Source: Oscillospiraceae bacterium (lineage in GTDB: Bacteria; Bacillota; Clostridia; Oscillospirales; CAG-272). From it: 64,000 bases of DNA. Below are positions 9,567 to 64,000 of this stretch, one piece after another (position 1 is the first letter of the stretch; each line of letters begins with the position of its first letter). The notes under the pieces were generated by a model. That model was not told where the DNA came from. It worked only from the letters and a program-made list of their open reading frames with translations, and did not search any database. Made by a program: the position numbers and the translations under genes. Location of the stretch: contig SVRN01000004.1 of assembly GCA_015064805.1 (NCBI GenBank), positions 24,965 to 88,964 on the forward strand, read 5' to 3'.

Positions 9567-10160
9567 CTTCTCCTACAGCCTCACACTGCGCGATTTCATC
9601 GCGCGCGTTCGGTGAAAGTTTATTGCCCCTTCTTTGCCTTGTCGCAAAGAAGGGGCGAAGAAAAGACACCAAGACGTTCCCTCTTGGAACTCCCTGGCAG
9701 CGCGAAAAGGTCGCGGCGCTCTCGCTCTGCTCATCTTTTCGCGAAGTTTCACGTCTTCAGCTTTTGCGTGCGCGAGTGAAAGAAACTCGCACACACCTAT
9801 TGGCAAAAGTTCTTGCTTTGGCCGCCCCCCGGCGCGCGTGATGAGTGCCGTCGGGTGATATAGAAAGAAAGCAGATATCTTTCTCTTGGTTCGCTTTGAA
9901 GCGCGGCGCGGCGTGAAGTGAAAAAAGATAGCTTGCTCGCAATAGGAGGCGGAGCTTTGGCTCCGCCGACGCAAACTTTGCAGATGCCAAAACGCCTTTT
10001 GGTAACCACCAAAAGATAGCAAAAGAAACAAGTTCTGCGGAGTTCCAAGGGGCATTAGGCCCCTTGGTCCTCTTTCTTGGTTCATTCTTTCTCGGACGAG
10101 AAAGAATGAACGCTAACGCACAGCGCGCCGCGTCGTGGCGCGCCAAAGCAAAGAACGTTA
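9567..10160. mobile_element. Family-1 structured intergenic element, copy A (two arms, long core)
   Basis: CTTCTCCTAC terminus, pseudoknot arms at 9625-9668 and 10067-10111, core shared with 14210-14560 and 59955-60365. Confidence 0.85.
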
Positions 10161-10223
10161 CATCCCCCACGCAAAAAAGGACCGCATGGATCAAATCTCC
10201 ATGCAGTCCTTTTGTTTTTACCA

Positions 10224-10661
10224 TCAAAGAAAGCTATCCGCAAAGGCCGTTGCCAGCGCGTCGCAGCGCTCGTTATACGGATGCCCCGTGTGTCCGTGTA
10301 CCCAAACGAAGCTCACTTTGTGCTTTTCCAGCAGCCCAAGCAAAACCTCCCATAGATCCACGTTGAGCGTCGGTGATTTGTCCGCCTTGCGCCAACCTTT
10401 GGCTCGCCACGACACCGCCCATCCCTTGGTAATGGCGTCAATGACGTACTTGGAGTCCGAGGTCAGCGTGACCTCGCAGGGCTCGCGAAGCGCCTGCAGC
10501 GCCGAGATGACGGCCGTCAGCTCCATGCGGTTGTTGGTGGTTTCCCGCTCACCGCCCGACAGCTCTTTTTCAATGCTTCCGTACACCAATATCGCGCCCC
10601 AACCGCCCCGTCCGGGATTGCCGCGGCAGGCACCGTCGGTATAAATATCCACGTGCTTCAT
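10224..10661 (-). CDS. rnhA: Ribonuclease HI
   Basis: [43 protein letters not shown]. Confidence 0.97.
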
Positions 10662-10674
10662 GTCCGTCCTCCCA

Positions 10675-11448
10675 TCAGCGTGCTTCACCGTAGGCGGCCA
10701 GCGCCCGCTTGTCGCGCGTGGTCAGCTTGACGGTCTCGTTGATGCCCATTGGATCGTTTTCCTCCACCGGCTCGTAGATGACGATGCTGCTGTAGGGCGT
10801 GCGGTCATACTTGACGTTGCCGATATAATAGAAATCCACCGAAATGTTGATGAGCGCCGCTGTGTCCACATCCACGTTATCAAACACGTATCTGCGGTAA
10901 TTGTACATGGCGGTCGAGTCCTCCGTCGGCTCACCCGAGGGGTGAATGCGAAGGATTTTACGGTCAGCTGTTGAGTTGTTGGTCGGATCAAGATCGATCG
11001 CAAGCGCAAGGGTGACGTCAACGACGGTATCCTCGCGGGAAGGGATCTCATCCTCTCCCAGAGAAAAGTCCTGTGCGATGTGCTTGAGCGTGCTGTTGTT
11101 ATAGCGGATCAAGACCTGCACTTGATTGGCCTCGGGGATGAAAACGGTCTGGCAGACCCAGAAGTAGCCTGCCGTTTCGCCCTCCATGACGACGGGGGCG
11201 TGAGTCTGCGTGTACATGGTCAGCTCGTCGCCGCTCTCGACGTAAGCATCGTACAGCGCGTCGTTGACCGTCAGCGTCTCCATGTTTTTGGGCACGTGCC
11301 CCGAAAACAGCACGCGCCAGAGCACCAGCGCGATGATACCAAAGATCAGGCCGCGCGCGGCGTATTTGAGGCACTTGAGCGTGATCAGCTGTCCGCGGCT
11401 CATATTTGTGTGTGAATATTGCTCGTATTCCTTTTCGTAATCCGTCAT
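10675..11448 (-). CDS. Hypothetical membrane-anchored protein
   Basis: 257-aa ORF, N-terminal TM segment, in line with ruvX and rnhA. Confidence 0.8.
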
Positions 11449-13920: not shown

Positions 13921-13976
13921 AAAAGCAAGGCGAGGATGTGAAGAACATTCTCGCCTTTTTTGACGGGGGAGGGGGG

Positions 13977-14694
13977 TAGCTGAATTTCAGGCGTCTTCTC
14001 CTCTTGACGCGCACAACGCGGGAACGAAAATATGTGCTTGTGGGGTGTTCAGTTACCCGCTCCCGAAGAATTTTGCTTGCAAAATTCTTCCCTTAGAAGC
14101 GCAATCTCTGCTTCGCGAGGGCGCTGTGTCGGTTTTGGTGTTCATTCTTTCTCGTCCGAGAAAGAACGAACCAAGAAAGCGGACTAAGGGGTCTAATACC
14201 CCTTAGAACCCCCGAGCGCGAAAAGGTCGCGGCGCTCGCGCTCTGCTCATCTTTTCGCGAAGTTATAAAAATTCAGCTTTTGCGTGCGCGAGTTAAAGAA
14301 ACTCGCACACACCTCAGGGCAGAAATTTTGAGTTTTTCGCCCGCCGCGCGTGTTGGCTTATAGCGAGAGATGCAGAAAAAACGTATATGTTTTTCTCCTC
14401 TATTTGCTATGAAACGCGGCGCGGAATGAAGTAGAAAACGATAGCCTGCTCGCAATAGCAACGGAATCTTTGGATTTCGTTGCGCAAAAATTGCAGACGC
14501 GATAACGCCTTTTGGTAACCACCAAAAGATAGCGAAAGCAAAAAATCTTGCGGGTTTCTTAAGGGCATTAGGCCCTTAAGTTCCCTTTCTTTCGCCATTT
14601 CTTTGTGGAACAACAAAGAAATGGCATCTTGGCAACACACCGAGCGCGCGAAGCTGGGCGGGGCTATAGGAGAAGATGCTGAAAAACTCAGCGA
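13977..14694. mobile_element. Family-1 element, copy B
   Basis: Termini TAGCTGAATTTCAGGCGTCTTCTCC / GGAGAAGATGCTGAAAAACTCAGCGA; pseudoknot arms 14140-14184 and 14580-14625. Confidence 0.85.
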
Positions 14695-17826: not shown

Positions 17827-18399
17827 TAGCTAAACTTTTCACAACTTCGTAGCCGGGCTCACACTGCTTCGCGCGTTCGCTGTACCGGCTTTGGTTGTCA
17901 CTTCTTGTCTCGTGACAAGAAGTAACCAAGAAACACGCCCAGGCGTTCCCCCTGGGAACCCCCTCCATCCCTCCGGCCTTTCATGGCCGTCGGGGATTTT
18001 TGTTCAGCAAACCTTCTCCATCTGCGGGGCATATATCCCACCCCGCAGATGGGTTGGCTTGGCAAAAGCTTTTGCTTTTCCGTTCTGTTTGAGATTCCGT
18101 CTATCACAGGGAACGAGGCAAAAATTATCGTCCTTTGCAAAAGCGGAGTCCGAGCAACTCCCGTGAGTGCGACTTTCTTTAAGTCGCGCTCGCAAAAGCT
18201 GAAGATGCTCACTTTTGCGTCGTGCTGCGCGCTTGCGCGCCCGCAAAGACGCACTGCGGGAATCCAAAGGGCATTAAGCCCTTTGGCGCGTTTCTTCCGC
18301 CACTTCTTGCCGCGCAGCAAGAAGTGGCATCAAAACTGCACAGCGCACGCGCACGAAGTGCAGTGTGAGCGTCAAAAGAAGAAGTTGCCGAAAATTTAG
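17827..18399. mobile_element. Family-1 element, copy C (different core)
   Basis: GCTCACACTG / CAGTGTGAGC inverted ends; pseudoknot arms 17897-17937 and 18286-18328; inverted core module at 18163-18210. Confidence 0.8.
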
Positions 18400-23583: not shown

Positions 23584-23598
23584 TATAAACGTGCCTCC

Positions 23599-33060: not shown

Positions 33061-33076
33061 CGGGGGAGAGGGAGTT

Positions 33077-33445
33077 TAGCTGAAATTCAAGCACCTTCTC
33101 CTTTTGACGTGCGTACAGCTAGTTTTGTGTTCATGCTTGCATGACGCCCGTGTTTAGCGGGCGAGCAAAACTTGTTATTTCGCTTGCGAAATATGGCTTC
33201 GCGCCGCGCTGTGCTGTATTTGATGTACTTTCTTTGTCGCTGAACAAAGAAAGTACCAAAGAAAGTCAGCTCGGACGTTCCCTCCGAGGCCTCCCTTGGC
33301 ATTGCCGCTCTACAAAGAGGATCAAGAGATAGACATAACGGTCTATTGTGCTTTGCTTCAAGGTAGCCATCACGAGCGGCAGATATGCCAAAGCAAGAAA
33401 TTTTGCGGGGTGCCAAGGGCATTCGCTTTCACCGGGCGCGCGCCA
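33077..33445. mobile_element. Family-1 element, copy D (left arm, short core, degenerate right arm)
   Basis: TAGCTGAAATTCAAGCACCTTCTCC terminus; pseudoknot 33225-33270. Confidence 0.8.
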
Positions 33446-40205: not shown

Positions 40206-40244
40206 GGGGAGCTCCTTTCATTTTATTTTGGTGGGGTTGGATGG

Positions 40245-40620
40245 AGTTTTCAACGACTACTCCTTTTGACGCGCGTACAGCTGCGCGCCGCGCTGTGCGA
40301 TATTTGATGTACTTTCTTTGTCGCTGAACAAAGAAAGTACCAAAGAAAATCAGCCAAGACGTTCCCTCTTGGATCTCCCCTGTCCGTGCCGCTCTTCATA
40401 GAGTAGCAGGAGAAAGACATAAGGACTTATTCTGCATCGCTCGCCACATAGCCACCACGAGCGGCAGATATGGGGAGCAAAATTTGTTAAAGCAAGTCTA
40501 TTTTGATGGAGCGAGAGGGGGAGGGGCCCCCTGAGCTAGCGGTAGCCGATTTCGCCGCAGGCGAAATCTCTATGGAACAGAGCACGTTCTTCCCCCCTAC
40601 AGGGTCAGGAGAAGTTGTTC
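40245..40620. mobile_element. Family-1 element, copy E
   Basis: CTACTCCTTTTGACGCGCGTACAGC left end; pseudoknot 40309-40354; AGGAGAAGTTG right-terminus motif near 40607. Confidence 0.75.
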
Positions 40621-48857: not shown

Positions 48858-49112
48858 TGGAATTTTAACAACTTTTTCTACGGGACGGCGCGCCACAACG
48901 CGGCGCGCGTGCGGTTGTGTTACTTCTTTCTCATTCAAGAAAGAAGTAACCAAGAAAGTGAACCAAGACGTTCCCTCTTGGAACTCCTTTCCCGTGCCGC
49001 GCTACAAAGCAGAAAAGGAGAAAGACATATAGTTTTATTATACATCTCTCGCCGTTTTATCACCACGTGCGGCAGATATAGAAAGCGAAAAGTCTTGCGG
49101 GGTGTCAAGGAG
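48858..49112. mobile_element. Family-1 element, copy F (short)
   Basis: Pseudoknot 48919-48962, CCAAGACGTTCCCTCTTGG hairpin, GCCGC..GCGGC module. Confidence 0.8.
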
Positions 49113-51554: not shown

Positions 51555-51616
51555 TTTCGTTATTTTATAACAAATTCATGCGATAATACTCATATTTTGT
51601 TAGAATGTAACAAAAT
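51555..51616. promoter_or_regulatory. Two palindromic GTTA-N5-TAAC candidate operators
   Basis: ATTTTGTTA-GAATG-TAACAAAAT (51594-51616) and TTCGTTA-TTTTA-TAACAAA. Confidence 0.6.
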
Positions 51617-51627
51617 GGAGGTGCGAC

Positions 51628-51891
51628 ATGGTACGAATTTTGCTTTCTAAAAAATTAGGCGAGCTGCGTTGGACGCAAGCGGATCTTGCGCGTGCGACGG
51701 GGATTCGCCCTTCAACGATCAATGAATATTATCACGAATTTGCCGAGCGCATCAATCTTGAGCACTTGGATCTCATCTGCGAGGCGTTGCAATGCGACTT
51801 GGGTGAAATCTTGGTACGGGTTCCAAATGCCGAGCCAAAAGTGAAATCGCGCAGTACGGCTCGTGAGCGCAAAAAAGAGGAAAACGCATGA
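51628..51891 (+). CDS. Cro/C1-type HTH (XRE) regulator
   Basis: TQADLARATGIRPSTIN, L..ICEAL.C..GEIL. Confidence 0.9.
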   Translation: MVRILLSKKLGELRWTQADLARATGIRPSTINEYYHEFAERINLEHLDLICEALQCDLGEILVRVPNAEPKVKSRSTARERKKEENA

Positions 51892-52610: not shown

Positions 52611-52626
52611 CGATTCCTACTCTTTG

Positions 52627-52800
52627 AAAGTTTTTAGTCAAGTTTTTTTCAAAAAACTTGCAGAGTCCAGAGACAGCGTCTCTGGTCGCCCTCCGCAGAG
52701 GGCGAAATTCTTTATCCTTACCAAGCGCCCGAAGGGGTGAATTGTCAATCGCTTGCGATTGACAAGAGGGGAAACCACAAGTGGGGTTTCCCCTTTTTTT
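52627..52800. repeat. Family-2 element
   Basis: Colinear with 25040-25200 (CAAGCGCCCGAA.GGGTGAATT, AAGAGGGGAAACCACAAGTGGGGTTT). Confidence 0.85.
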
Positions 52801-52803
52801 ATA

Positions 52804-53418
52804 TCACATTCCCCCATTTTGCGGTCGAAGCAAGACGCCGTCGGCAGCGCAGGTCAGCGGGCGAAAGGCCGATCCCGAGAGCAGCTGGCGATAGCAGAGG
52901 TCGTTTTCAAGCAGCAAACGCGTACCGCGGATATGCAAAAAACGGGCGGTCGCGTAGCGGTAGGTGGACAACGGGCGGTTGCGGGCGTCGTCCGTGTGGG
53001 CGCTGACCAGAAAATCATCGCCCTCCCGGCCCGTGATCATGAGCGTGTGATAGTACGTCCCCTGCTCGTTGGCCAGCTGTACCACGTCGCCCGGCTCGAT
53101 CATGGTCGTTGGCACCTCTGCGCCAAAGGGGCCCTCGCCTCCGTTTTCACGCAGATACTCGGGATTTCCCGTGATGAAATTATAGAAAAACTGCACTCCC
53201 GTCCAGGCAGGCGCGCGGTTTTCGGGCGAAAAATAGTACCAGCCGAAATCCAGCGTGTCGTTCATGACACAGCTCCCCGCCAGGATCGCTTGCGAGACGA
53301 AGTTGGTGCAGTCGCCCCCAATGCCGGCAAAATCGGGGAACAGCGGATTGCGCGACAGCGCCCAGCGAAGCGCGTATTCGACCGCCCGCTCTCTTACGTA
53401 AGGTATCTCGATCAACAT
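52804..53418 (-). CDS. Amidase_6 domain protein
   Basis: Y.R..AV.YA..WA..RNP, GGDCTNFVSQ, PGDVVQL, YH, AHT. Confidence 0.88.
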   Translation of the reverse strand: MLIEIPYVRERAVEYALRWALSRNPLFPDFAGIGGDCTNFVSQAILAGSCVMNDTLDFGWYYFSPENRAPAWTGVQFFYNFITGNPEYLRENGGEGPFGAEVPTTMIEPGDVVQLANEQGTYYHTLMITGREGDDFLVSAHTDDARNRPLSTYRYATARFLHIRGTRLLLENDLCYRQLLSGSAFRPLTCAADGVLLRPQNGGM

Positions 53419-53495
53419 ATGCATCCCTCCTCCCGCCAGTATATGCGGACAACATGTGCCCCGTTTTCCAAAAAATCAATAATTTTCTCAAAAGA

Positions 53496-53557
53496 TGTTG
53501 ACAAGTCAACAAATGTCATGTATAATGGGCGACGGCGGGATGTTGAGCAGTCAACAT
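53496..53557 (+). promoter_or_regulatory. Sigma-A promoter with two palindromic operators upstream of degV
   Basis: TTGACA(53498)-17-TATAAT; TGTTGACAAGTCAACA and ATGTTGAGCAGTCAACAT. Confidence 0.7.
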
Positions 53558-53612
53558 TTTTCTGCAAACAGCCTCCTAACAAAAAGCATCCCGCCCTTCA
53601 AAGGAGAACGAT

Positions 53613-54470
53613 ATGAGTAAGGTAAGACCGGTCCGCATCATCGTGGACTCGAGCTGCGATGCCGCGCCCGAGGTGCGCGCGCGATTGCGCGTGGTGCCCT
53701 TGAGAGTGCGCTTTGGCAACGACGAATATATCGACGGTGTGACCATCACGCACCACGAGTTTTATTATATGCTGACCACAAGGCAAGATCTTCCCACGAC
53801 CAGCCAGGCCAATCCCGCCGCCTTTGCGAGCGTGTACGACGAGGTGCTGGCGGCGGATGAGGATGCCGTCGTGCTGACCATTTCCTCGGCGCTGTCGGGT
53901 ACGTATCAAAGTGCCGTTATCGCCGCTTCGGACGTTAGCGACCGCATCCACGTGGTCAATAGCAAGACGGTGGCCATCGGTACGGGCATTTTGGCGGAGC
54001 ACGCGCTGTCGCTGGCTGATGCGGGCCGGAGCGCGGCTGATATTGCCGCCGAGTTGAATCGCTTGCGCGATCGGGTACGCCTTTTGGCCGTGGTCGATAC
54101 GCTGGAATACCTCAAGCGCGGCGGGCGCCTTTCACGCACGGCCGCCTTGGCGGGAACGGTGCTGGGCATCAAGCCGCTGTTGACCTTGCGCGACGGCGCG
54201 GTTGATATGCTGGGCAAGGCGCGGGGGAGTCGGCAGGGATATGCGGCCATTCAAAAAATAGCGACGGACATGGGCGGCGTCAATTTCGACCTGCCCGTGA
54301 TGCTGGGCTACACGGGGCAGAGCGACGAGGCGCTGTGGCAGTTCGTTTCTTGCACCAGGGCGCTGTGGGGCGAGCATCGGGATGAGTTGCGGGCGTCGCC
54401 CATCGGCAGCGTCGTCGGCACGCACGCGGGCCCCGGCGCGGTCGCCGTGGCGTATATTGAGAGGGAATAA
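53613..54470 (+). CDS. DegV/FakB fatty-acid-binding protein
   Basis: IIVDSSCD, PTTSQ, ISS.LSGTYQSA, LEYL.RGGR, IKPLL, GTH.GPG. Confidence 0.95.
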   Translation: MSKVRPVRIIVDSSCDAAPEVRARLRVVPLRVRFGNDEYIDGVTITHHEFYYMLTTRQDLPTTSQANPAAFASVYDEVLAADEDAVVLTISSALSGTYQSAVIAASDVSDRIHVVNSKTVAIGTGILAEHALSLADAGRSAADIAAELNRLRDRVRLLAVVDTLEYLKRGGRLSRTAALAGTVLGIKPLLTLRDGAVDMLGKARGSRQGYAAIQKIATDMGGVNFDLPVMLGYTGQSDEALWQFVSCTRALWGEHRDELRASPIGSVVGTHAGPGAVAVAYIERE

Positions 54471-54471
54471 A

Positions 54472-54514
54472 GAGTGAGGGGAAAACTTCTTGGAAGAAGT
54501 TTTCCCCTCACTCT
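54472..54514. repeat. Family-2 palindrome, possibly acting as bidirectional terminator
   Basis: GAGTGAGGGGAAAACTTCTT-GG-AAGAAGTTTTCCCCTCACTC between convergent genes. Confidence 0.75.
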
Positions 54515-54524
54515 CTTGTTATCA

Positions 54525-55349
54525 TCATTCCTCCCCGCCCTCATAGCCCGGCAGGATGCCGTCGAGGCGATTGTTCCAAAGGCGCAATCTGCCGCCCTCC
54601 ATTTTGAAGACGCGGTCGGCGCGGGCGGCGATGGACAGGTCGTGTGTGACCATGACCAGCGCGCATCCCATTTCGGCGCGGGTGTCCAATAGCAGCTGCA
54701 GCACGTCCTCGGCGTTGGCACGGTCCAAATTGCCCGTCGGCTCGTCGGCAAACAGGACTTGGGGGCGATTGATCAGCGCGCGGGCGATGGCAACTCTTTG
54801 CTGCTGTCCGCCCGACAATTCGCTGGGCAGATGGTGCAGTCGATCGGCCAGATCGAGCGAGGCGACCAGCAGCTTGAGGTGCTGATCGTAGGAGATTTCA
54901 TCCCGCCCGCACATCAGCGTCGGCACGAGAATGTTTTCCAGCGCGGTCAGATGGGGGATGAGATGGTGGCTCTGAAAGATCATGCCGAGAAAGCTGCCGC
55001 GGAACTTGCCAAGCTCGTCCTCGTTCATGTTCTCCAGCTTGTGACCGCGTACCACGATACTGCCCGCCTGAGGGCGATCCAGTCCCGCGCACAGGTGGAG
55101 CAGGGTGCTTTTGCCCGAGCCCGACGCGCCCACGATGGCGACGAACTCGCCCATGAACACGCGGAAGCTGGCGCGGTTGACGGCGGTGACCACCTCGTCG
55201 TACTGGTTGTACTGACGAATGACGTCGGTCGCCTCCAAAATGACCTTGCGCCCGTCGACGACGGGGGCGAGATCGGCGGTGTGATTGTCAATGGCCTCTT
55301 GCATGGCGCGGCGCGCCGCCTCGGCCTTTTTATCTTTTTTCGGATACAT
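54525..55349 (-). CDS. ABC transporter ATP-binding protein (LolD/MacB-like)
   Basis: GASGSGKST, LSGGQQQRVAIARAL, FADEPTGNLD, VTHD. Confidence 0.95.
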   Translation of the reverse strand: MYPKKDKKAEAARRAMQEAIDNHTADLAPVVDGRKVILEATDVIRQYNQYDEVVTAVNRASFRVFMGEFVAIVGASGSGKSTLLHLCAGLDRPQAGSIVVRGHKLENMNEDELGKFRGSFLGMIFQSHHLIPHLTALENILVPTLMCGRDEISYDQHLKLLVASLDLADRLHHLPSELSGGQQQRVAIARALINRPQVLFADEPTGNLDRANAEDVLQLLLDTRAEMGCALVMVTHDLSIAARADRVFKMEGGRLRLWNNRLDGILPGYEGGEE

Positions 55350-55367
55350 GCGTTGCTCCTTTCGTGG

Positions 55368-57641
55368 TTATTCGCCTGCCATAAGCGAAACGGTGCGGGT
55401 GCGACAACGGGCGCGGTAACGAAGTCCTGCCAGCACGGGCGGCAAAAATCCGCAGATCAGGGACAGCACGGAAGCGATAGCGAGCGAGATCCAGGGGAAT
55501 TCGTAGCGCAACACCACCGTGGTGATAAATCCGCCCGCAGGCAGATAGCGATTGAACAGCGAGAACAGCAGCCGATCGCAGATCAGCACACAGGGAACGG
55601 TCAGGGTGAGCGCCGCCAGGGCGGTAACCAGACCTGAGATGAGGTTACTTTGCAGGATCTCGGTGCGTGTTGCGCCAAGCGCGCGTAGCATATCCCATTC
55701 CTTTTCCCGCTTGCGGTAAAAGACGCGCTGGGAGAAGAACAGAATCAGCGGCATCATGAGCAGAAAGCTGACGGCCAGCACGCGCAGGCGTCCTTGCAGA
55801 TTGGACAGCGAGGTCGTGTAGCGGTCGAAAAAGACGTCGTTGTTTTTGACGTTGCAATGATAATAGCCGTAAGCGGCGGCGTAAACGGCGTCGCCTACGC
55901 GCTCCCACGTATCAAAATCGGCGTCCTTTTGCAGATAGACGTCCAGAGAAAAGCGAACGGGGGGCTGCAGCGTCAACGCTTCGTATTCCTTGAAATTGAC
56001 ACCGACGAGCAAACGGTCGTTGGCCGTTACGTCGTGAATGACGGCGCCTACGGTGTATTCCTCGTAGCCGAACGAGCCGCAATCGAGCTGTTGCATCAAA
56101 ATCTGCTTCAGATCCACAAGGCCAACGGCTTCGATTCCCTCAATCGCCGCCGTGGTGGCGATCAGAATTTTGTCCCCGGGGGCGAAGCTGAACATTTTGG
56201 TGCTGCTGACCGACTCGGTGATGACGACGGTTTTATCGTCGCGCAGTACGGAGGAAAGATCGCCCTCGATATCGGTGTACTGCCGCTGCAACGCGGTGAT
56301 GGCGGCCTCGTCAAGTGCCGTGTAGCTGTAATGGTTGGTGGCGGCCTGCCACAGATCAGCGTCGGCGCGGTTGAGGGGGCGGTCGTAATACACCGTCACG
56401 CTTGCCGCACCGTGCGTGTGATCCTCTTGAAGCAGCATATGGCTGCCAAGCATGGTAACGGGACAAAGAAGCTGTTCGGGCAGGCACATGGACACGCCTT
56501 CAACGGATAAGATCTCCTCTGAAAGCGCGGCGGTGTTTTGATTGAGCGTGTCAGCGTCGACCACCTCGGGAGAAAAGGTCACGGTGAAGTCGGGGGCAGG
56601 GGAGGCCTGCCGCTTTTCGTAAATATCGGACAGCGTCATGGCCGTGGTAAACAGCGTGGGTAAAAGAACTGCCGAGACCATCAGCCCGATCAGGTAGCGG
56701 CGGTAACGCCACAGGCTGATCAGCTCCAGATCGCGGGGAAAGCTTGCCCCGAAAATGCGAAGGGAGCGGCGGGGAGAGGTGGCGTGATTGCTGTTATCCC
56801 GCGCCCGCAAAAGCGCGACGGGCGGCTTTTTGGAGAGTCGGTGCATGGGAATGCGGACGGCCGCCAGCACGGTCAGAAGCGTGAACAGCAAAACCAGCAA
56901 CAGCGCTGCGGTGGAATAGTGCAACGCAACGCCGCGCGCGGCGTACAGCGCGATCGTAATACTGCTGCCGAGCAGGAGGGCGGGTAGAAGCGTCAGAAGC
57001 GAGAGAGCAAGCAGCTCACGGCAGCTGCGCCAATACAGACGGCGATAGGTCGCGCCGCAGGTCATGTAAATGGCGTAGTCAAACGTGTCGCGGTCGAGCC
57101 GCATGCGATAGAGCTGCATGAGTAAAAACAGCGAAAGGGCAAACACGGCCAGCGTCGCGACCGCCAAAAAAGCGAAAATATCTGGCAGATATTCCGCGCG
57201 GTAATCGTACAGCGGCGAGTATCCGGGCGCGAGATCGTAAAGGCCGTGCTCCTCCAAAAAATAGGCGGCGGCGCGGCGGGGGGAGGCACCCTTGAGAGTA
57301 ATATAAGCGTTGTAGCTGCCGTCCGGCATTTTTTCGTAGCGGATGGTACGGTAGGTCTCGGTCTCGGGAGCGGCGGTGGGCTCGGTGCCGCATTCGTTGT
57401 ACAGCTCAACGTACTGCGGCTGTGTCATGCCGCGGTACTCCAGCTCGTAATCGTAGCTTTGCGTGACGGTCTGCCTCGTCAGATACAGATCGTGCGCCGC
57501 CGAGAAGAACAATACGGTGTAAAGCGTCTGGATGATGGCCAGCGCGATCAGAAAAGCAATATGCGAGGGCAGATTGCGCAACAGCGTGCCAAGCAGAGAC
57601 CGCTTGGCCTTTCGTTGGTTTTTGGCTTGCTTCGATTGCAT
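55368..57641 (-). CDS. ABC transporter permease (FtsX/MacB-like, two TM blocks)
   Basis: Likely start MQSKQ after AAAGGGG; R.KE..MLRALGA motif; adjacent ATPase. Confidence 0.85.
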   Translation of the reverse strand: MQSKQAKNQRKAKRSLLGTLLRNLPSHIAFLIALAIIQTLYTVLFFSAAHDLYLTRQTVTQSYDYELEYRGMTQPQYVELYNECGTEPTAAPETETYRTIRYEKMPDGSYNAYITLKGASPRRAAAYFLEEHGLYDLAPGYSPLYDYRAEYLPDIFAFLAVATLAVFALSLFLLMQLYRMRLDRDTFDYAIYMTCGATYRRLYWRSCRELLALSLLTLLPALLLGSSITIALYAARGVALHYSTAALLLVLLFTLLTVLAAVRIPMHRLSKKPPVALLRARDNSNHATSPRRSLRIFGASFPRDLELISLWRYRRYLIGLMVSAVLLPTLFTTAMTLSDIYEKRQASPAPDFTVTFSPEVVDADTLNQNTAALSEEILSVEGVSMCLPEQLLCPVTMLGSHMLLQEDHTHGAASVTVYYDRPLNRADADLWQAATNHYSYTALDEAAITALQRQYTDIEGDLSSVLRDDKTVVITESVSSTKMFSFAPGDKILIATTAAIEGIEAVGLVDLKQILMQQLDCGSFGYEEYTVGAVIHDVTANDRLLVGVNFKEYEALTLQPPVRFSLDVYLQKDADFDTWERVGDAVYAAAYGYYHCNVKNNDVFFDRYTTSLSNLQGRLRVLAVSFLLMMPLILFFSQRVFYRKREKEWDMLRALGATRTEILQSNLISGLVTALAALTLTVPCVLICDRLLFSLFNRYLPAGGFITTVVLRYEFPWISLAIASVLSLICGFLPPVLAGLRYRARCRTRTVSLMAGE

Positions 57642-57976
57642 GTCGATGCCCCCTTTGCTACGTACTGATTTTATTATATCAAAAGATCTTTTCTCTTGCA
57701 AGGGGTTTTGAACGATGCTAAAAAGTTTACAACTTATGCAGAATGCACAATCAAAGCGCATGCCGTCTTGCAACCGACGGAGGATGAACTTTCAAAAAAC
57801 AAGCGAGAGTAACGCTTCGCATGGGCGAGAATGTGAACAGTTTGTAACCTTTTTGAAAGATGCTTGAAAAAAAGCGCGAAATGTAGTATTATATATACTG
57901 GGGAACGATGGGGGCATTGACACCTCGTTCCGTGTAAGCGTAAACAAAAAATACATATAGAAAAGAGGAAATTTCT

Positions 57977-59764
57977 ATGACGAAGAATCAGTACGTTCTG
58001 TCTTGGATCGATGAGATGGCTGCGATGACACAGCCCGACCAAATCGTCTGGATCGACGGCTCCGAGGAGCAGGCAGAGGCTCTGCGCGCCGAGGCATGCT
58101 CGACGGGCGAGATGATCAAGCTCAATCAGGAAAAGCTGCCCGGCTGCTATCTGCACCGCACCGCCGTCAACGACGTTGCTCGCGTTGAGGGCAGAACCTT
58201 CATCTGTACCTCCAAAAAAGAGGACGCAGGTAATATCAACAACTGGATGGATCCCGCCGAGTGCAAGGAGAAGCTCTCCAAGCTGTACCGCGGCTCCATG
58301 AAGGGTCGTACCATGTACGTCATTCCTTACTCCATGTCCGTCGTTGGCTCTCCCTTTGCCAAGTACGGCATCGAGCTGACCGACTCCATCTACGTCGTTC
58401 TGAACATGCTGATCATGACCCGCGTGGGTACGGACGTTCTTGAGGCTCTGGGCGACAGCGCCGACTACATCAAGGGTCTGCACGCACGCGCTGATATCGA
58501 CGAGGAGAACCGTTACATCGTTCATTTCCCCGAGGAGAACACCATCTGGTCGGTCAACTCCGGCTACGGCGGAAACGTTCTGCTGGGTAAGAAGTGCTTC
58601 GCGCTGCGTATTGCGTCCTATCTGGGCCGCAAGGAGGGCTGGATGGCCGAGCATATGCTCATTCTGGGCGTTGAGTTCCCCAATGGCGAGACCAAGTACG
58701 TCACCGCAGCGTTTCCCTCTGCTTGCGGTAAGACCAACCTGGCAATGCTCATTCCGCCCGAAATTTACGCAAAGCAGGGCTATAAGGTCTGGTGCGTCGG
58801 CGACGATATCGCATGGCTGCGTGTCGGCGAGGACGGCAGACTCTGGGCCGTTAACCCCGAGAACGGCTTCTTTGGCGTTGCTCCCGGTACCAATCTGCAG
58901 TCTAACCCCAACGCTCTGCACACCTGCATGAAGAACACCATCTTCACCAACGTCGTTCACAACACGGCTGACAACACCGTTTGGTGGGAAGGCCTTGACA
59001 AGAATCCTCCCAAGCCTGGCTCCGCCATCGACTGGAAGGGCAATCCTTGGGACTGCACCAAGTACGACAAGAAGGATAAGTCCACCTGCGGCGCACATCC
59101 CAACTCCCGCTTCACTGCAATGGCTACCAACTGCCCCTGCATCTCGAGCGAGTTTGCAAATCCCGCCGGCGTTCCCATTTCTGCGATCGTCTTCGGTGGT
59201 CGTCGCGCCAAGACTGCTCCGCTGGTTTACCAGTCGACCTCTTGGCAGAACGGTGCCTTTGTCGGTTCCATCATGGCGTCCGAGACGACGGCTGCGGCAG
59301 CAGGTGCTGTCGGTGTCGTCCGCCGCGACCCCATGGCCATGCGTCCCTTCGTCGGCTACGACATGGGTGACTACTGGGCACATTGGCTGTCTATGGGTAC
59401 CCGCATCCCCAATCCTCCTAAGATCTTCCACGTCAACTGGTTCCGCACCGACGACGAGGGCAACTTCATCTGGCCCGGCTTTGGCGACAACATGCGCGTG
59501 CTGATGTGGATCCTGGCTCGTTGCGAGGGCAAGGTTGATGCTGATATCACCCCCATCGGTTACGTACCCAAGGCAGAGGATATCAACATTGAGGGCCTGT
59601 CCGACGTGACGCTGGACACCATCCGCGAGCTCTTGACGGTTGACACCAAGTCCTGGCTGGAGGATATCGACAACATCAAGGCGTTCTACGCACAGGTTGG
59701 CGAGAGAGTTCCTCAGGCGATGTATGACGAGCTTGCTGCTCTGGAAGCAAGATTGTCGAAGTAA
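57977..59764 (+). CDS. pckG: GTP-dependent phosphoenolpyruvate carboxykinase
   Basis: DVARVE.RTFIC, SGYGGN.LLGKKCFALR, AFPSACGKTNLAM, VGDDIAW, NPE.GFFGVAPGT, HPNSRF. Confidence 0.97.
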   Translation: MTKNQYVLSWIDEMAAMTQPDQIVWIDGSEEQAEALRAEACSTGEMIKLNQEKLPGCYLHRTAVNDVARVEGRTFICTSKKEDAGNINNWMDPAECKEKLSKLYRGSMKGRTMYVIPYSMSVVGSPFAKYGIELTDSIYVVLNMLIMTRVGTDVLEALGDSADYIKGLHARADIDEENRYIVHFPEENTIWSVNSGYGGNVLLGKKCFALRIASYLGRKEGWMAEHMLILGVEFPNGETKYVTAAFPSACGKTNLAMLIPPEIYAKQGYKVWCVGDDIAWLRVGEDGRLWAVNPENGFFGVAPGTNLQSNPNALHTCMKNTIFTNVVHNTADNTVWWEGLDKNPPKPGSAIDWKGNPWDCTKYDKKDKSTCGAHPNSRFTAMATNCPCISSEFANPAGVPISAIVFGGRRAKTAPLVYQSTSWQNGAFVGSIMASETTAAAAGAVGVVRRDPMAMRPFVGYDMGDYWAHWLSMGTRIPNPPKIFHVNWFRTDDEGNFIWPGFGDNMRVLMWILARCEGKVDADITPIGYVPKAEDINIEGLSDVTLDTIRELLTVDTKSWLEDIDNIKAFYAQVGERVPQAMYDELAALEARLSK

Positions 59765-59829
59765 GAGAATATTTTCGAGGCGAGTTTCAGGATGAAACTC
59801 GCCTCGGTTTTTTGAATTGTTCTTTGCCG

Positions 59830-60492
59830 CTTCTCCTACGGACGCGCGTACAGCTACGCGCCGCGCTGTATCGGGTTGGATGCCCTTTCTTTGTCGCTGA
59901 ACAAAGAAAGGGCCAAAGAAAATCAGCCAAGGGGCCTAATACCCCTTGGGACCCCCGAGCGCGAAAAGTCGTTCCGCTGGCGCTCCACTCATTTTTTCGC
60001 GAAAGCAAGCATCTTCAGCTTTTGCGTTTGCAAGTTAAAGAAACTTGCAAACACGAAAGACGCACGCAAGCGAAGAAGCAAACGTTTTTGCTATTTGCGA
60101 CGCGCCCCAGTTCAGCTAATCTTCTGACAAAAACGATTTTGCATCCCCTGCCCGCCGCGCGTGGAAGCTATACGGCGAGAGATGCAGAATAAACTTTTAT
60201 GTTTTTCTCGTGAAGCACTTTGAAGCGCGGCACGGAATAAAGCGGAAAATGATCGCCTGCTTACAGCAGGAGGCAAATCTTTGGATTTGCCGACGCAAAG
60301 ATTGCAGATGCGATAACGCCTTTTGGTAACCACCAAAAGATAGCGAAAGAAACAAGTCTTGCGGGCTTCTTAAGGGCATTAGGCCCTTAAGTGTCTTTTC
60401 TTCGCCTATTCTTTGCGACAAGGCAAAGAATAGGCATAAATATGAACAGCGAACGCGCGCCGAAGGCACAGGGTGAGCGTCCGTAGGAGAAA
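59830..60492. mobile_element. Family-1 element, copy G, with perfect 15-bp terminal inverted repeat
   Basis: TTCTCCTACGGACGC (59831-59845) / GCGTCCGTAGGAGAA (60477-60491); pseudoknots 59882-59927 and 60392-60435. Confidence 0.9.
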
Positions 60493-60558
60493 CAGCATAT
60501 ACTTTAGCAAAACACAACCCCGCTGTGACGACAGATCGCCACAGCGGGGTGCTTATCG

Positions 60559-62676
60559 TTAAATATCGGCATCCTTAATATAAAGATTACCGTACTGTGC
60601 AATAAATTCCTTTCTCGCTGGCAGATTGTTACCAAGCAACGTATCAAAAATCTCCTCCGTTGCCTGCTCGTCTGCAGGAGAAACCAAAACGAGTCTGCGC
60701 GTTTCGGGATTCATGGTCGTCTGCCACATCATCTCCGAGGTGTTCTCACCAAGACCCTTGGAGCGCTGCAACGTGTACTTCTTACCCTCCAGCTTCTTGA
60801 GGATCTGGGTACGCTCGAACTCGTCGTAGGCAAAATACGTCTTGTCCTTGCAGGTGATCTCAAACAGCGGCGTTTCCGCAATGTAGATCTTCTCCTCCCG
60901 AATCAGCGTGGGGAGCAAGCGATAGAACAGCGTCAGCAGCAGCGTGCGGATCTGGAAACCGTCCTCGTCTGCATCGGTACAGATGATGATCTTGGACCAG
61001 CGCAGTGCGGACAGATCAAACGAAACCATGTCTGTTTTGACCTTTTTGTGGCCCGTCAGCTCAACGCCACAGCCAATGACGCGAAGCAGGTCGGTGATGA
61101 CCTCACTCTTGAAGATCTGCTCGTAATCGGCCTTCATACAGTTGAGCGTCTTACCGCGCACGGGGATGATGGCCTGGAATTCGGCCGCGCGTCCCAGCTT
61201 GACCGAGGTCAGAGCCGAGTCACCCTCAACGATGTACAGCTCGCGGACGGCGGGGTCCTTGGAGCGGCAGTTGACGAACTTCTCCACGCGGTTGGTCACG
61301 TCGATGGTCGCACTGAGCTTCTTCTTGATGTTGATGCGGGCGCTCTCCGCCTCTTCACGGCTGCGCTTGTTGAGCAGGACCTGGGTGGCGAATATATCGG
61401 CGGCGCTGGGGTTTTCGATGAAATAGACCTCCAGCTGCTTTTTGAGGAAGTCGGTCATGGCCTCGTAGATGAAGCGGTTGTTGATGGCCTTTTTGGTCTG
61501 GTTTTCGTACGAGGTCAGCGTGGACACCGAGTTGATGACCAGCACGAGGCAGTCGGCGACGTCCTGGAAGGTGATCTTGGATTCGTTTTTGGTGTACTTA
61601 CCTGCGTTCTTGATGTAATTGTCGAGCGCACCCACAAAAGCAACCTTGACCGCGCGGTCGGGAGAGCCGCCGTGCTCCAGGTAGCTGGCGCAGTGGTAGT
61701 ACTCCAGCATCTTTACCGTGTTGGACACGCAGAAGGTGAAATCTGCCTTGAGCTTGTACATGGGCTTGTCCTCGCGGTCGCGGCCCTGCGCCTCCAGATG
61801 CCAAAGCACGGGGGCGGTCAGCGCGGCGCTGCCCACCTGCTCGGTGATATAGTCGACGATGCCGTTTTCGTACAGATAAGAGGACTCGGCAAACGTGCCG
61901 TCCTCCTGCTCCAGGCGCAGATCGAAGCGAACGCCGGGGGTGACGATGGACTGACGACGCATGGTCTCAATGAAGAACTCGTGCGGAATGGCCACGTCGT
62001 TGAAGACCTCCAGGTCGGGCAACCAATGCTGGACCGTACCCGTGCGCTTTTCGCTTGCCTTGAGCTTGCGGGTGGTCAGCGAGCCTTGTACCTCGCCTTT
62101 GGCGAAGTGGATGGAATACTCGTTGGTCCCGTCGTAGGAATAAACGTGCATGAACTCGGAGGAATACTGCGTCGCGCAAGCGCCAAGGCCGTTCAAACCC
62201 AGCGAGTACTCGTACGCACCGCCCTCGTCGTTGTTTTCATATTTACCGCCTGCGTACAGCTCACAGTAAATCAAATCCCAGTTCCAGCGATTTTCGCGCT
62301 TGTTGAAGCCCAGCGGAACGCCGCGTCCGTGGTCGTCGACCGTGATGGAATGATCCTTCCATGCCGTGACGGTGATGACGTTACCGTTGCCCTCACGCGC
62401 CTCGTCGACGGAGTTGGAGAGAATTTCGAAGAAGGCGTGCTCGCAGCCCTCCAGACCGTCCGAGCCGAAAATGACGGCGGGACGCTTGCGCACGCGGTCG
62501 GCGCCCTTGAGCGATTTGATGCTGCTGTTGTCGTATTTGGCCGAGTCTGCCGCTGCAGGCTCGACGACGGGAGCCTCCGTCTTCGGAGCTGCCTTGGGCG
62601 CGGCCTTTTTTGGCTTTGCGGGAGGCGTTTCGATCTCCAGCTGTACGATATCAATGTCTGCTTTCTTTTTTGCCAT
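60559..62676 (-). CDS. Type IIA topoisomerase B subunit (divergent GyrB/ParE-like)
   Basis: VRKRP, EIL.NSVDE, DHGRG.P, GL.GLG, YIVEGDSA, P.RGK.LN, TDADEDG, SKGLGE, TTMNPE.R. Confidence 0.93.
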   Translation of the reverse strand: MAKKKADIDIVQLEIETPPAKPKKAAPKAAPKTEAPVVEPAAADSAKYDNSSIKSLKGADRVRKRPAVIFGSDGLEGCEHAFFEILSNSVDEAREGNGNVITVTAWKDHSITVDDHGRGVPLGFNKRENRWNWDLIYCELYAGGKYENNDEGGAYEYSLGLNGLGACATQYSSEFMHVYSYDGTNEYSIHFAKGEVQGSLTTRKLKASEKRTGTVQHWLPDLEVFNDVAIPHEFFIETMRRQSIVTPGVRFDLRLEQEDGTFAESSYLYENGIVDYITEQVGSAALTAPVLWHLEAQGRDREDKPMYKLKADFTFCVSNTVKMLEYYHCASYLEHGGSPDRAVKVAFVGALDNYIKNAGKYTKNESKITFQDVADCLVLVINSVSTLTSYENQTKKAINNRFIYEAMTDFLKKQLEVYFIENPSAADIFATQVLLNKRSREEAESARINIKKKLSATIDVTNRVEKFVNCRSKDPAVRELYIVEGDSALTSVKLGRAAEFQAIIPVRGKTLNCMKADYEQIFKSEVITDLLRVIGCGVELTGHKKVKTDMVSFDLSALRWSKIIICTDADEDGFQIRTLLLTLFYRLLPTLIREEKIYIAETPLFEITCKDKTYFAYDEFERTQILKKLEGKKYTLQRSKGLGENTSEMMWQTTMNPETRRLVLVSPADEQATEEIFDTLLGNNLPARKEFIAQYGNLYIKDADI

Positions 62677-62719
62677 AGTGGTTATATATATTCCTTTTCT
62701 TTATTTTCGTAGTCAGGGG

Positions 62720-63721
62720 TCACAGTACCTCGCTTGCATAGACGAGGTGTGTTTGAATGTTGTCAGTTGCCTGCTCGCAGATCTCAAACACGCGGGCGCA
62801 GCGGCGTTCGTCCTCCTTGGTGCCGCGGAAGCCGATGGCACCGTCAAAGCACAGCTTGATGCCGCAATACTCGGCGGCAAAGTTATCGTCGTGCATATGG
62901 CCGCTGACGATGGCGCGGACGTCACCGCGCTGAAGGACGGTCGAGAACAAGCCCGAGTTGAGTGAGCCGGAAAACAGCGTTTCGAGCGCGTTGCCCTCAA
63001 GAGAGGTGCGCTCGGGATTTTTCATGCAGATGCCAAACTCCAGAATGGGGGCGTGCATGAGCATCAGCGCGTCGACGGGCGCGCCGTTATAGGCTTCGAG
63101 GGCTTCGGAGGTGTCGTAATACCAGCGGAGCTGATTAAAATGGACGAAATCCCAATGCGAGGTGCCGTAGGGAAGGTCAGGCGCCGTGTGCGCCGCGCGC
63201 AGATTGACGCCGTTTCTCAGCTTCAGGCGGTCGGAGAGATTATGGGTATCAAGCCCCCAGACGGCAAAGGCCACGCGGCTGTCGTCCGACGAGCGGATGG
63301 GCAAGAGAAAATTGGATACGCCGTCCACGCCCGCCTCGGTATGAGCCGAGACGCAATGGGGGTAGGATTCAAATATCGACTGCATCAGATAACGGTCCAT
63401 AAGAACGTCGTGGTCGTGGTTGCCGTAGACGTGGGCCCACGGAATGCCGCGGGATTCCATCGGCGCGGAGAATATGTCCAGAAATTCGCGCAGCTGCTCG
63501 ACTGTTGCCTCGGGTATCTCGTTCCAGATGTCACCGCCGAGCAGGACCAGATCGGGTTGCTCGCGTTCGATGATACCGTGCATGGCGGCGAGGGTGCGGG
63601 GATCGTAGTTGGCGGTTTGATGCAGGTCGGAAAAGCAGCAGATTTTGAAGCTGCCGTTCGGGCGGAATTTCAGAGGTTTCTTGGGGGAGATATAAGGTTT
63701 TAGCAAATCGGGTGTGGTCAT
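62720..63721 (-). CDS. Calcineurin-like metallophosphoesterase
   Basis: SDLH, GGD, GNHD, H.P, GH.H.DN, R..RVFE. Confidence 0.9.
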   Translation of the reverse strand: MTTPDLLKPYISPKKPLKFRPNGSFKICCFSDLHQTANYDPRTLAAMHGIIEREQPDLVLLGGDIWNEIPEATVEQLREFLDIFSAPMESRGIPWAHVYGNHDHDVLMDRYLMQSIFESYPHCVSAHTEAGVDGVSNFLLPIRSSDDSRVAFAVWGLDTHNLSDRLKLRNGVNLRAAHTAPDLPYGTSHWDFVHFNQLRWYYDTSEALEAYNGAPVDALMLMHAPILEFGICMKNPERTSLEGNALETLFSGSLNSGLFSTVLQRGDVRAIVSGHMHDDNFAAEYCGIKLCFDGAIGFRGTKEDERRCARVFEICEQATDNIQTHLVYASEVL

Positions 63722-63751
63722 GGGGCACCTCAGGGGGGAGATTTTGGGGGG

Positions 63752-64000
63752 TGGCTAAATCTTTTACTGCTTACTCCTACGGACGCTCACACTGTGCTTC
63801 GCACGCGCTCGCGGCTTGTTTTTTTATGTTCATTCTTTGCCGCGCGGCAAAGAACGAACCAAGAAAGCGCGCCAAAGGCTGCCGCCTTTGGAAACTGCTT
63901 CCGTGCCGCTCTTCAAAGCGGGTTAGGGAGAAAGACATATAGTTATTAAGTGCATCGCTCGCCGCGCAGCTACCACGAGCGGCAAATATGGTGGGGCAAG
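63752..64000. mobile_element. Family-1 element, copy H (truncated by the window end)
   Basis: CTCCTACGGACGCTCACACTG terminus; pseudoknot 63828-63872; short core. Confidence 0.8.

Follow-up and report, generated by a model that had tools for sequence, protein, structure and literature searches.

We analysed a 64,000-nucleotide stretch (hereafter the window) of the genome of an Oscillospiraceae bacterium, positions 24,965 to 88,964 of contig SVRN01000004.1 in GenBank assembly GCA_015064805.1, which contains eight copies, named A to H, of a dispersed structured repeat. The family is a variant of the repetitive extragenic palindromic (REP), bacterial interspersed mosaic element (BIME) and MITE-like repeats (a MITE being a miniature inverted-repeat transposable element), and it is unusual in containing a module, the arm hairpin H, that recurs across phyla. 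The explanation we favour, and consider probable, is that of a non-coding, non-autonomous intergenic family of this kind that has spread in one uncultured gut genus of the Clostridia and is kept under structural constraint. An earlier note, made from the window itself, had proposed a structure-selected, non-autonomous mobile family mobilised in trans. The part of this proposal stating that the family is non-coding, structurally constrained, dispersed and has moved stands, whereas the part invoking an enzyme acting in trans could not be substantiated.

The genome of the window (G000) comprises 2,208,331 bases in 88 contigs, with the window located at C72:24965-88964. The eight copies form one family at the positions previously given, as they are joined by the repeat families D1-D7, D10, D13, D18 and I1-I12. 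When used as blastn queries against G000 they produced 1530 high-scoring segment pairs (HSPs), which merged into 160 regions covering 60,213 bases. Arm hairpin H was located by means of the pattern TTCTTK, 2-14 nt, MAAGAA, 4-8 nt, AAGAA, which is encountered 213 times in G000, against once for the reversed pattern that served as control. After combining the blastn regions with the arm hairpins and merging neighbouring pieces, the family amounts to 140 intergenic blocks totalling 62,798 bases, i.e. 2.8% of the genome, of which the window contains 8 blocks with 12 arm hairpins H. Intergenic gaps were taken from a crude gene call, an initial version of which was spoiled by spurious open reading frames (ORFs) inside the elements; 131 of the 140 blocks fall into such gaps and 9 were left unassigned. 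The blocks lie in 87 tandem, 29 convergent and 15 divergent gaps, compared to 860, 296 and 276 gaps of these types in the genome. That is, the use of gap types is roughly proportional, with divergent gaps depleted mildly at most. In none of the elements was a coding partner found, in agreement with the non-coding character assumed before. Stop-free frames of 111-170 aa do exist inside elements, such as 9573-10085(-) (170 aa), 17898-18320(-), 33087-33422(-) and similar ones.

The basic element is ~400 nt long and consists of two structured units of ~190 nt each, placed back to back. From the outside inward one encounters a G-run, a palindrome of the TTTAGCTAAA type, the motif ..TTTTnACAA, the terminus with its GC-rich hairpin (T), hairpin H, a 4-7-nt strand complementary to the H loop, the L hairpin, and the core. 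The G-run and the TTTAGCTAAA-type palindrome extend the copies by ~25-45 nt outward of the termini assigned to them before, which were too short, and neighbouring elements have one TTTAGCTAAA centre in common. Terminus variants read CTTCTCCTAC.., CTTCTTCTTTTGAC.. or CTTCGTAGCC.., each with a T hairpin, and mostly have GTAG next to the GC-rich hairpin (CGTAGGAGAAG, CTTCGTAGCC), a CTTCTTCTTTTGACG variant being devoid of it. The L hairpin has the loop ATTAG in the 'La' type and GACGTTCCCTC or GGCTGCC in other types, and because the two ends carry different L types the element has a polarity. The core of the basic form is made up of modules f (124 nhmmer matches in G000) and h, to which longer classes add the modules d, e, g, c2, Bx, Dx and Ex, each identified 18-150 times by nhmmer. 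The 79 pairs of a + arm followed by a - arm show discrete inner distances, namely 175-179 nt (16 pairs), 254-271 nt (8), 335-365 nt (25) and 398-566 nt (30). Altogether the elements are a regular mosaic of palindromic units with alternating orientation, fixed module order and discrete spacing classes, which is the organization of a BIME, as found in enterobacteria and pseudomonads.

The relationships between arms that had been pointed out in the window were also recovered. The terminal inverted repeat (TIR) of copy G, TTCTCCTACGGACGC, is perfect over 15 nt (59831-59845 and 60478-60492). Taken as reverse complements, the right arm of G aligns with the left arm of A over 46 nt at 91% (I5), and the left arm of B with the right arm of A over 78 nt at 88% (I3), with the cores of A, B and G pointing in the same direction (D1, D4); between copies in general, inverted similarity at arm length is 78-91%. 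What was described as an element with interchangeable arms is, however, better read as two back-to-back units carrying the same outward series of modules. Full-length paralogues in G000 are 69.9-86.9% identical (median 77.5%, 44 pairs) and differ in length by only a few bases. Conservation of length at such divergence argues for constraint on each copy, and short stretches of up to 96% identity amid the diverged paralogues point to exchange between copies. Regarding the surroundings of the elements, start codons cluster 99-127 nt from H in approximately 40 of 209 arms (crude scan), and in many cases an element end borders on the ribosome-binding site of the gene next to it.

For hairpin H, 119 sequences from several taxa were aligned with MAFFT on the outward strand, i.e. 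the strand read from the element centre towards its end. This set derives from 123 chosen sequences, of which L161:1494, L159:404, L162:1492 and L160:1334 were dropped as evident false or overlapping matches; from its genus pool of 164 distinct sequences, in which loci L099-L126 and thereby at least one outsider (L126, apparently Zeta-like) were counted, 60 were drawn at random. The H stem has 12 bp, with 99.4% of the alignment cells paired and changes on both sides at 9 of the 12 pairs. The H loop pairs with the adjoining strand in 76.9% of the cells in a fixed register, with covariation at 4/4 pairs. For the whole structure, 94.4% of the cells are paired, compared to 72.7% in shuffled data (none of 500 shuffles reached the observed value) and 44-54% with slid partners. 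Among the G000 arms, complementarity of at least 4 nt between loop and flank is present in 176 of 213, against ~47 of 213 with shuffled partners. A hairpin loop paired to its flank, with covariation, constitutes an H-type pseudoknot, and the same arrangement was seen by eye in five phyla. In the L hairpin (48 sequences), six of the nine pairs exhibit compensatory changes and none is broken. Covariation of the stems, as claimed in the earlier note, therefore holds for the H stem and the L hairpin, and for the pseudoknot as well. The accompanying claim that loops stay fixed holds for the L loop ATTAG but not for the H loop, which covaries with the adjoining strand.

The exceptions to Watson-Crick pairing are distributed unequally between the strands. 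Over the outer five H stem pairs of the 213 arms, read on the inward strand, there are 1001 Watson-Crick pairs, 58 A·C, 2 G·T and 4 other combinations, and since an A·C on the inward strand corresponds to a G·U on the outward one, the exceptions are nearly all G·U on the outward strand. The G·U position of H is occupied by C-G, U-A or A-U in other subtypes. In 180 of 212 whole arms, the outward strand is also the one with the more stable fold (mean difference -5.6 kcal/mol), which holds for T, H and L taken separately as well, and the preference switches at the element centre, as inverted symmetry requires (arms only, cores left out). The near-exclusive occurrence of G·U on the outward strand argues for selection on a single strand, and the selected form would thus be single-stranded and probably RNA. 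On the outward strand, a simple terminator scan flags the L hairpin together with the U-rich tract behind it.

The outward strand of H reads, in order, pseudoknot strand, UUUCUU(G), stem strand UUCUUU(G), loop, and stem strand (C)AAAGAA. The UUUCUU linker has exactly the sequence needed for a parallel U·A-U / C·G-C third strand, and, given UUCUUU/AAAGAA in the stem, it might occupy the major groove there and form a triple helix. The linker, pyrimidine and purine strands change together, as TTTCTT/TTCTTT/AAAGAA in 74 and TTCTTT/TTTCTT/AAGAAA in 17 of the 119 sequences. The case for a triple helix formed by the linker in the H stem is suggestive. Triple-helix H-type pseudoknots are known in telomerase RNA, the SAM-II riboswitch, and viral and transposon ENE elements. 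Like these, H would have a U-rich loop in the major groove of an A-rich stem, next to a pseudoknot helix and near an RNA 3′ end. Unlike them, H is a dispersed repeat without sequence similarity to these RNAs or Rfam match.

The three-block layout of H, TTCTTT .. AAAGAA .. AAGAAA in the 213 arms, with blocks that change together, also resembles the PIT and TM intrastrand-triplex motifs (e.g. TMECO) of Holder et al. (2015; PMC4666352). There, these are described as a pyrimidine block, a loop, a purine block, a loop, and a mirror purine block, and as being intergenic, multi-copy, strongly variable in number among close relatives, associated with unstable loci and without assigned function (PMC4666352). 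On this likeness one could suppose that H acts as DNA, in the form of a PIT/TM-kind intrastrand triplex or a cruciform that affects supercoiling, replication or recombination and promotes rearrangement, the remainder of the element hitch-hiking. Both the layout and the published link of such motifs to locus variability would fit, and the orthologous sites described below are unusually variable. We nevertheless regard this as very unlikely. That study (PMC4666352) gives 6 nt as the shortest stem searched, considers 7-nt stems as likely due to chance and bases its comparison on 8-15 nt; the 6-nt blocks of H equal that lower limit and fall outside this range. TMECO, according to the same study, has G/C-rich stems and blocks of 9 nt and stands alone, whereas the H blocks are A/T-rich and sit in a covarying 12-bp hairpin with a loop pseudoknot, as part of a larger element. 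In the same text, no stable triplex was found in vivo, and the H sequence is not printed (0 occurrences of TTCTT or AAGAA). Loop-to-flank pairing, a preference for G·U and covariation in the outer stem all characterize a folded single strand rather than duplex DNA.

Hairpin H was then sought with an exact 19-mer in one genome per GTDB species, which identified more than 108 stretches, a lower bound. Among the matches listed, most are uncultured gut metagenome-assembled genomes (MAGs) of ruminants or other animals labelled Clostridia, Eubacteriales or Oscillospiraceae, i.e. the genus of the window. The list further contains Phascolarctobacterium, Acidaminococcaceae, Zetaproteobacteria including Mariprofundus ferrooxydans PV-1, Propionigenium maris DSM 9537, Motiliproteus, Fusicatenibacter, and a Microgenomates MAG. 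In all of these, the second stem half, the A·C/G·U position and the complementarity between loop and flank are present too. Whole-genome counts of H are 68 in P. maris, 32 in Phascolarctobacterium, 10 in Mariprofundus PV-1, 6 in Fusicatenibacter and 5 in Motiliproteus, with controls at 0-2. Judged by its sequence, the arm hairpin H is thus a cross-phylum motif and is not private to G000. Phascolarctobacterium, Fusicatenibacter, Zetaproteobacteria and P. maris also have elements with two arms (350-550 nt), the termini and cores of which are quite different. Many P. maris units are solitary and ~235 nt long, with H at one boundary beside a long-range helix, CCTCTTTCAA .. TTGAAAGAGG. This closing helix shows compensatory variants and reaches at least 10 contiguous bp (10-12) in 9 of 17 units, and there are six or more versions of its sequence; when the units were examined one at a time, the mean was 9.8 versus 8.2 for the control, a weak separation. 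RNAalifold returned a partial structure for the P. maris units, with helices mis-registered by MAFFT, and nothing was conserved upstream of them. Plasmid and phage collections had no match to the 86-nt arm, and in viral contigs the 19-mer was present in one short contig. In the Microgenomates MAG, a type III hammerhead-like sequence with a CUGAUGA .. GAAA core (L082:4627-4691(-)) lies ~60 nt upstream of H on the same strand; it scores 31.5 bits (E 0.0076), below the Rfam gathering score.

These data allow a bolder proposal, which we put forward as tentative and on balance unlikely, namely that the H-units would be cross-phylum, self-propagating, protein-less RNA modules of ~200 nt, ending in a triple-helix pseudoknot and spread and kept by host machinery. 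They would be the bacterial equivalent of the ENE elements by which eukaryotic transposon and viral RNAs have their 3′ ends stabilised. Equally doubtful is the corollary that such modules would have colonised Clostridia, Negativicutes, Fusobacteriota, Zetaproteobacteria, Gammaproteobacteria and Patescibacteria.

By BLAST the family is found in 7 of the 12 other genomes of the genus and in none of 28 genomes from other genera of the family and order. Arm counts in the 13 genus genomes, G000 included, are 225 (G008), 213 (G000), 188 (G010), 132, 97 (G002), 73, 55 (G005), 44, 25, 23, 1, 0 and 0, with controls at 0-2; completeness is 87% and 58% for the two genomes without arms, and G007 is free of copies. 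Among another 300 genomes of the phylum, each at least 90% complete, counts were at control level except in G241 (20 vs 1). The latter belongs to another family of the same phylum and might be a further carrier lineage.

The comparison of filled and empty sites that the earlier note had called for showed that occupancy differs between relatives, i.e. that the elements are polymorphic between species. At site A, G010 has an orthologue within one continuous HSP of 89% identity and G012 has a different, H-less element. Site B is represented in G010 by a remnant of ~85 nt in which two termini are joined in their GC-rich parts, and site C by a shorter version in G012. At site D, G002 has a two-terminus remnant of ~34 nt and G010 an element of 606 nt whose core is C-type. 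Site E is empty in G007 and G011, with a T-only remnant in G003; site F is 96% identical in G010, empty in G007 and G001, and a remnant in G003. At site G, each of four species has a content of its own, namely the G000 form, a version of 150 nt reading 'T, single H, T' (G003), a C-type core (G010) and another right half (G012). The element at site H is present in G010 and G008, as judged by HSP extent. Overall, orthologous sites are empty, full, core-swapped or reduced to remnants of 35-150 nt. The empty sites imply that elements were inserted after the split from copy-free lineages, and the family is dispersed and has clearly moved. Later reshaping, as the aligned sites appear to record it, took place through loss of sequence between palindromic modules of the two arms and through core replacement.

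The empty sites also bear on the idea that the units are independent small-RNA genes, trans-acting or cis-antisense, with promoters in the AT-rich core centre and H/T as a protective 3′ end, that spread by duplication or recombination. Such genes would explain why each half is more stable on its outward strand with a switch near the centre, why lengths are strictly kept despite 20-30% divergence, and why P. maris has single units whose boundaries coincide with structural elements, 9 of 17 of them having a 10-12-bp closing helix that adjoins H. On the other hand, copy G contains no promoter-like site where shuffled sequences average 0.8, the P. maris units lack conserved upstream sequence, and the empty orthologous sites together with the TIRs point to insertion. 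Furthermore, we know of no precedent for 200 or more copies of one small RNA in a 2.2-Mb genome. We therefore hold this explanation to be quite improbable.

Of the enzymes proposed for mobilisation in trans, HUH transposases and reverse transcriptases were searched for without finding support for either. The statement that the window contains no transposase was upheld, in that the contig has no Y1_Tnp, RVT_1 or TnpB match and none was found in the 15 window ORFs scanned, a negative that covers part of the ORFs and of the transposase families. Elsewhere, G000 encodes at least four Y1 genes with an HUH motif that resemble REP-associated tyrosine transposases (RAYTs), three intact and one broken, at C69:1175-1585(-), C76:72066-72377(-), C24:25913-26209(+) and C88:17840-17977(+). 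All four have a conserved upstream hairpin and a TATAAT box in common, and each contains, inside its coding region, a pair of inverted GTAG hairpin repeats, the same repeats being dispersed in G000 (18 copies of the GTAGGGACCGGCGTCC type and 12 of the GTAGGGGCGG.. type). A stop interrupts the gene on C69, and the one on C88 contains the repeat in a tandem expansion that stays in frame.

The presence of these genes raises the possibility that the elements are oversized REPINs (mobile units of two inverted REPs), in which the T hairpins with GTAG termini would be REPs moved as single-stranded DNA by a RAYT-like Y1 (HUH) enzyme, with the H units as cargo. Termini do have GTAG outward (..CGTAGGAGAAG) or inward (CTTCGTAGCC..) beside GC-rich hairpins, and the terminus-only doublets of ~35-85 nt resemble REPIN doublets. 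RAYT-like protein matches were obtained in 7 of the 13 genus genomes, six of them carriers, including the four richest in arms, although related genomes are not independent samples. Against this explanation, which we judge to be quite unlikely, is the fact that the RAYT-like genes both contain and are flanked by a GTAG repeat of another kind (GTAGGGACC or GTAGGGGCGG type). T or H modules do not flank them, and the closest elements are at least 1.4 kb away or absent within 3 kb. In addition, the carriers G002 (97 arms) and G005 (55 arms) have no match to the G000 RAYT-like protein, no Y1_Tnp lies beside an arm in the five other-phylum carriers (G041-G045), and G041 (Phascolarctobacterium, 32 arms) has no Y1_Tnp at all.

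Reverse transcriptase, for its part, would be needed if the units were retro-mobile RNAs, similar to short interspersed nuclear elements or to retrozymes, copied in trans. The P. maris unit boundaries are those of the RNA structure rather than inverted repeats, and the weak hammerhead match in a single Microgenomates contig, ~60 nt upstream of H, would fit a retrozyme. However, RVT_1 was detected in only two of the 13 genus genomes, namely G000 and the copy-free G007, and not in the arm-rich G008 and G010; no A-tails or duplications were seen at the ends, and the hammerhead link is a single sub-threshold case. This makes retro-mobility highly improbable. An IS200/IS605 derivative (PATE) with omega RNA is also a poor likeness, as the arm hairpins are inverted and not direct, and none of the five carriers has TnpB above the family cut-off. 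In sum, no mobiliser among Y1_Tnp, RAYT-like proteins, RVT_1 and TnpB adjoins or convincingly tracks the elements; DDE transposases, serine and tyrosine recombinases and IS110 were not searched.

Among described repeat families, the one treated here stands closest to REP/BIME/MITE-like sequences without coinciding with any of them. At the gathering threshold, Rfam recognizes three tRNAs and nothing else in the window; in E-value mode, copies A-C and G gave noise (best E 0.14), and eight other-phylum loci had no family on H. The literature searched by sequence strings and by keywords yielded primers or unrelated matches and general REP/MITE/triplex papers, respectively, and no description of the family. 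With BIMEs (PMC2817692) and REPs the elements have in common high-copy intergenic palindromic units in alternating orientation that form mosaics with short motifs. They depart from REPs in that a unit is ~190 nt instead of ~35 nt and includes a pseudoknotted hairpin plus several further helices, that REPs are species-specific whereas one module here is cross-phylum, and that no cognate RAYT was found beside the elements. As in REPIN/RAYT systems, there are two inverted hairpin repeats as a mobile unit, terminus doublets, RAYT-like Y1 proteins encoded in the genome and, in most but not all T variants, GTAG next to a GC-rich hairpin; unlike in such systems, the RAYT-like genes go with another GTAG repeat, and the elements span 400-700 nt and contain structured cargo. 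Bacterial MITEs such as Correia elements, RUP and Nezha are also non-coding, with TIRs, tens to hundreds of copies, insertion polymorphism and outward promoter-like ends. Compared with MITEs, no target-site duplication was visible at the elements and comparisons examined, no parent insertion sequence with the same ends was found, and two structured units take the place of TIRs around a spacer. Moreover, the copies are old (≤87% identity) and yet conserved in length, which suggests selection on each copy.

Under the explanation that we favour, that of a non-autonomous REP/BIME/MITE-like family, each unit is organized, from the centre outward, as L hairpin, 4-7-nt pseudoknot strand, UUUCUU linker, 12-bp H, T hairpin and TIR. 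Longer elements contain additional core modules, and shorter ones would result from deletion between palindromic modules of the two arms. The active form may be a single strand read outward, most likely RNA produced by read-through from neighbouring genes. Its role would be REP-like: being very stable and placed 3′ or between cistrons, the structure would block exonucleases or insulate transcripts, and element ends might also supply an outward -35 box. The moving enzyme would probably be provided in trans or by the host, and it may have been active only in the past.

A number of observations weigh against this explanation and should be considered together. As to mobility, no target-site duplication was visible in 10 elements with both outer motifs or in the filled/empty comparisons, where the genomes are too diverged for an exact junction; no paralogues exceed 87% identity over their full length (maximum 86.9% in the 44 pairs), leaving current mobility unproven; and differences in occupancy could partly be due to loss. 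No autonomous copy was found, no arm pair in G000 enclosing more than 566 nt; in the draft assemblies of P. maris and Phascolarctobacterium, the wider arm pairs examined (over 800 nt) surround ordinary genes, for RsmB, HAD, rubrerythrin and DUF4274 proteins. Blocks are distributed unevenly over contigs (chi-square 225 over 35 contigs, p about 4e-30), a clustering not predicted by the explanation: the 80.6-kb contig C76 has 32 blocks in 41 gaps and C88 holds 16, and several contigs of 40-60 kb have none (C5, C8, C23, C29, C33 and others are free of blocks). Block-free contigs tend to be lower in GC, with exceptions. As to selection on RNA, 47 of the 58 A·C cases belong to one inherited subtype with a GTTCA/CGAAC stem, and G·T wobble would also favour the outward strand as single-stranded DNA. 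Finally, 12 of the 119 H sequences lie outside the fixed triple register and 16 have a shorter CAAGAA tract, and the three-way covariation fits an antiparallel Watson-Crick duplex as well as it fits a triple helix.

Individually, the copies in the window illustrate the modular organization. Copy A (9567..10167) is two-armed with a long core (modules d, e, g and h) and a degenerate right terminus. Copy B (13964..14694) is two-armed as well, its outer G-run and TAGCTGAATTTCA motif (13964-13994) lying beyond the terminus assigned earlier, and copy C (17827..18399; I4, I7, I8) is two-armed with a different core (c2) and an inverted module d. Copy D (33062..33445) has a single complete arm with an f and h core and a truncated right arm. 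Copy E (40245..40620) consists of a left arm, an f core and a different right part (Ex). Copy F (48858..49112), located between two co-directional genes, has a left arm and an f/h core and is truncated on the right. Copy G (59825..60492) is a full element with the convergent terminators of a PEPCK gene and gyrB on either side. Copy H (63752..64000) has a left arm and an f core; the window ends inside it, and the element continues to approximately window position 64324.

In copy G, hairpin H was assigned by pattern and covariation to 59887..59921 in the left arm (+ in inward reading, putative functional strand -) and to 60397..60430 in the right arm (- in inward reading, putative functional strand +). 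Further H arms were located by the pattern at 9630-9663(+), 10073-10106(-), 14145-14178(+), 14586-14620(-), 17902-17933(+), 18291-18323(-), 33230-33264(+), 40314-40348(+), 48924-48957(+) and 63833-63866(+). The La-type L hairpins of copy G (loop ATTAG) lie at 59927..59949 (- strand), followed by the pseudoknot strand and a U-rich tract with a terminator-like flag, and at 60369..60391 in the right arm (+, the outward strand; terminator scan and covariation). Core module f, with the closing pair TGCCGCTC..GAGCGGCA, occupies 60136..60236 in copy G and is in the opposite orientation at 40383-40483, 48992-49090 and 63902-64000 (D5, I1, I2). Across the left end of copy E there is a promoter-like site directed outward, TTGAAA-17 nt-CAAAAT (40225..40253, - strand), a consensus match that lies upstream of the adjoining sigma-factor-like gene. 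Contigs from two metatranscriptome and two DNA runs break at the repeats in the part of the window that was compared (44001-64000). Within copy G, one contig of DNA run X1 joins positions 60003 and 60149, which suggests a strain variant in which 145 nt of the core are missing or replaced.

Apart from this family, the window contains other repeats and some features of note. A second, unrelated family of short intergenic palindromes, of the form GGGG(A)AC, T-run, CAAAAAAGTT, CCCC and relatives, is present at 24958-25022, 30983-31047, 31013-31045, 31153-31185, 31375-31431, 31540-31596 and 40640-40690, and a similar repeat is found at site F in G005. A third type is a 65-nt direct repeat at 25088-25152 and 52682-52746, 83% identical, with two small GC hairpins. 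An 80-nt stretch that covers the 3′ end of a rubrerythrin gene (23505-23584) is repeated at 24866-24945 with 98% identity, and between the two repeats lies an Acyl_transf_3 acyltransferase gene (23767-24834), in a region (22000-26000) whose GC content of 46-50% is the lowest in the window; it looks as if the acyltransferase gene was inserted with a target duplication. Three tRNA genes are clustered at 39164-39402 on the + strand, and 44098-45222(-) encodes a BspA-type leucine-rich-repeat protein with internal 63-nt DNA repeats (family D8).

If the explanation favoured here is correct, a compact 2.2-Mb gut genome devotes nearly 3% of its DNA to one structured non-coding family, which occupies ~1/11 of the intergenic gaps of G000 and up to ~78% of those on one contig. 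The family explains many contig breaks in the MAGs of the genus as well as spurious ORFs such as the 170-aa frame at 9573-10085. Hairpin H would be common, almost base for base, to marine iron-oxidisers, a fusobacterium and gut Negativicutes, and conservation of this kind is normally confined to functional RNAs. H would then be a candidate for a natural bacterial triple-helix pseudoknot, and would tie the long-unexplained 'intrastrand triplex' repeats to structure at the level of RNA or of a single strand. The family would also constitute a system for addressing how protein-less repeats spread and are retained, with Propionigenium maris DSM 9537 and its 68 copies as a cultured and harmless carrier. 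What interests us most is that the cross-phylum H unit might be a functional RNA containing a triple-helix pseudoknot.

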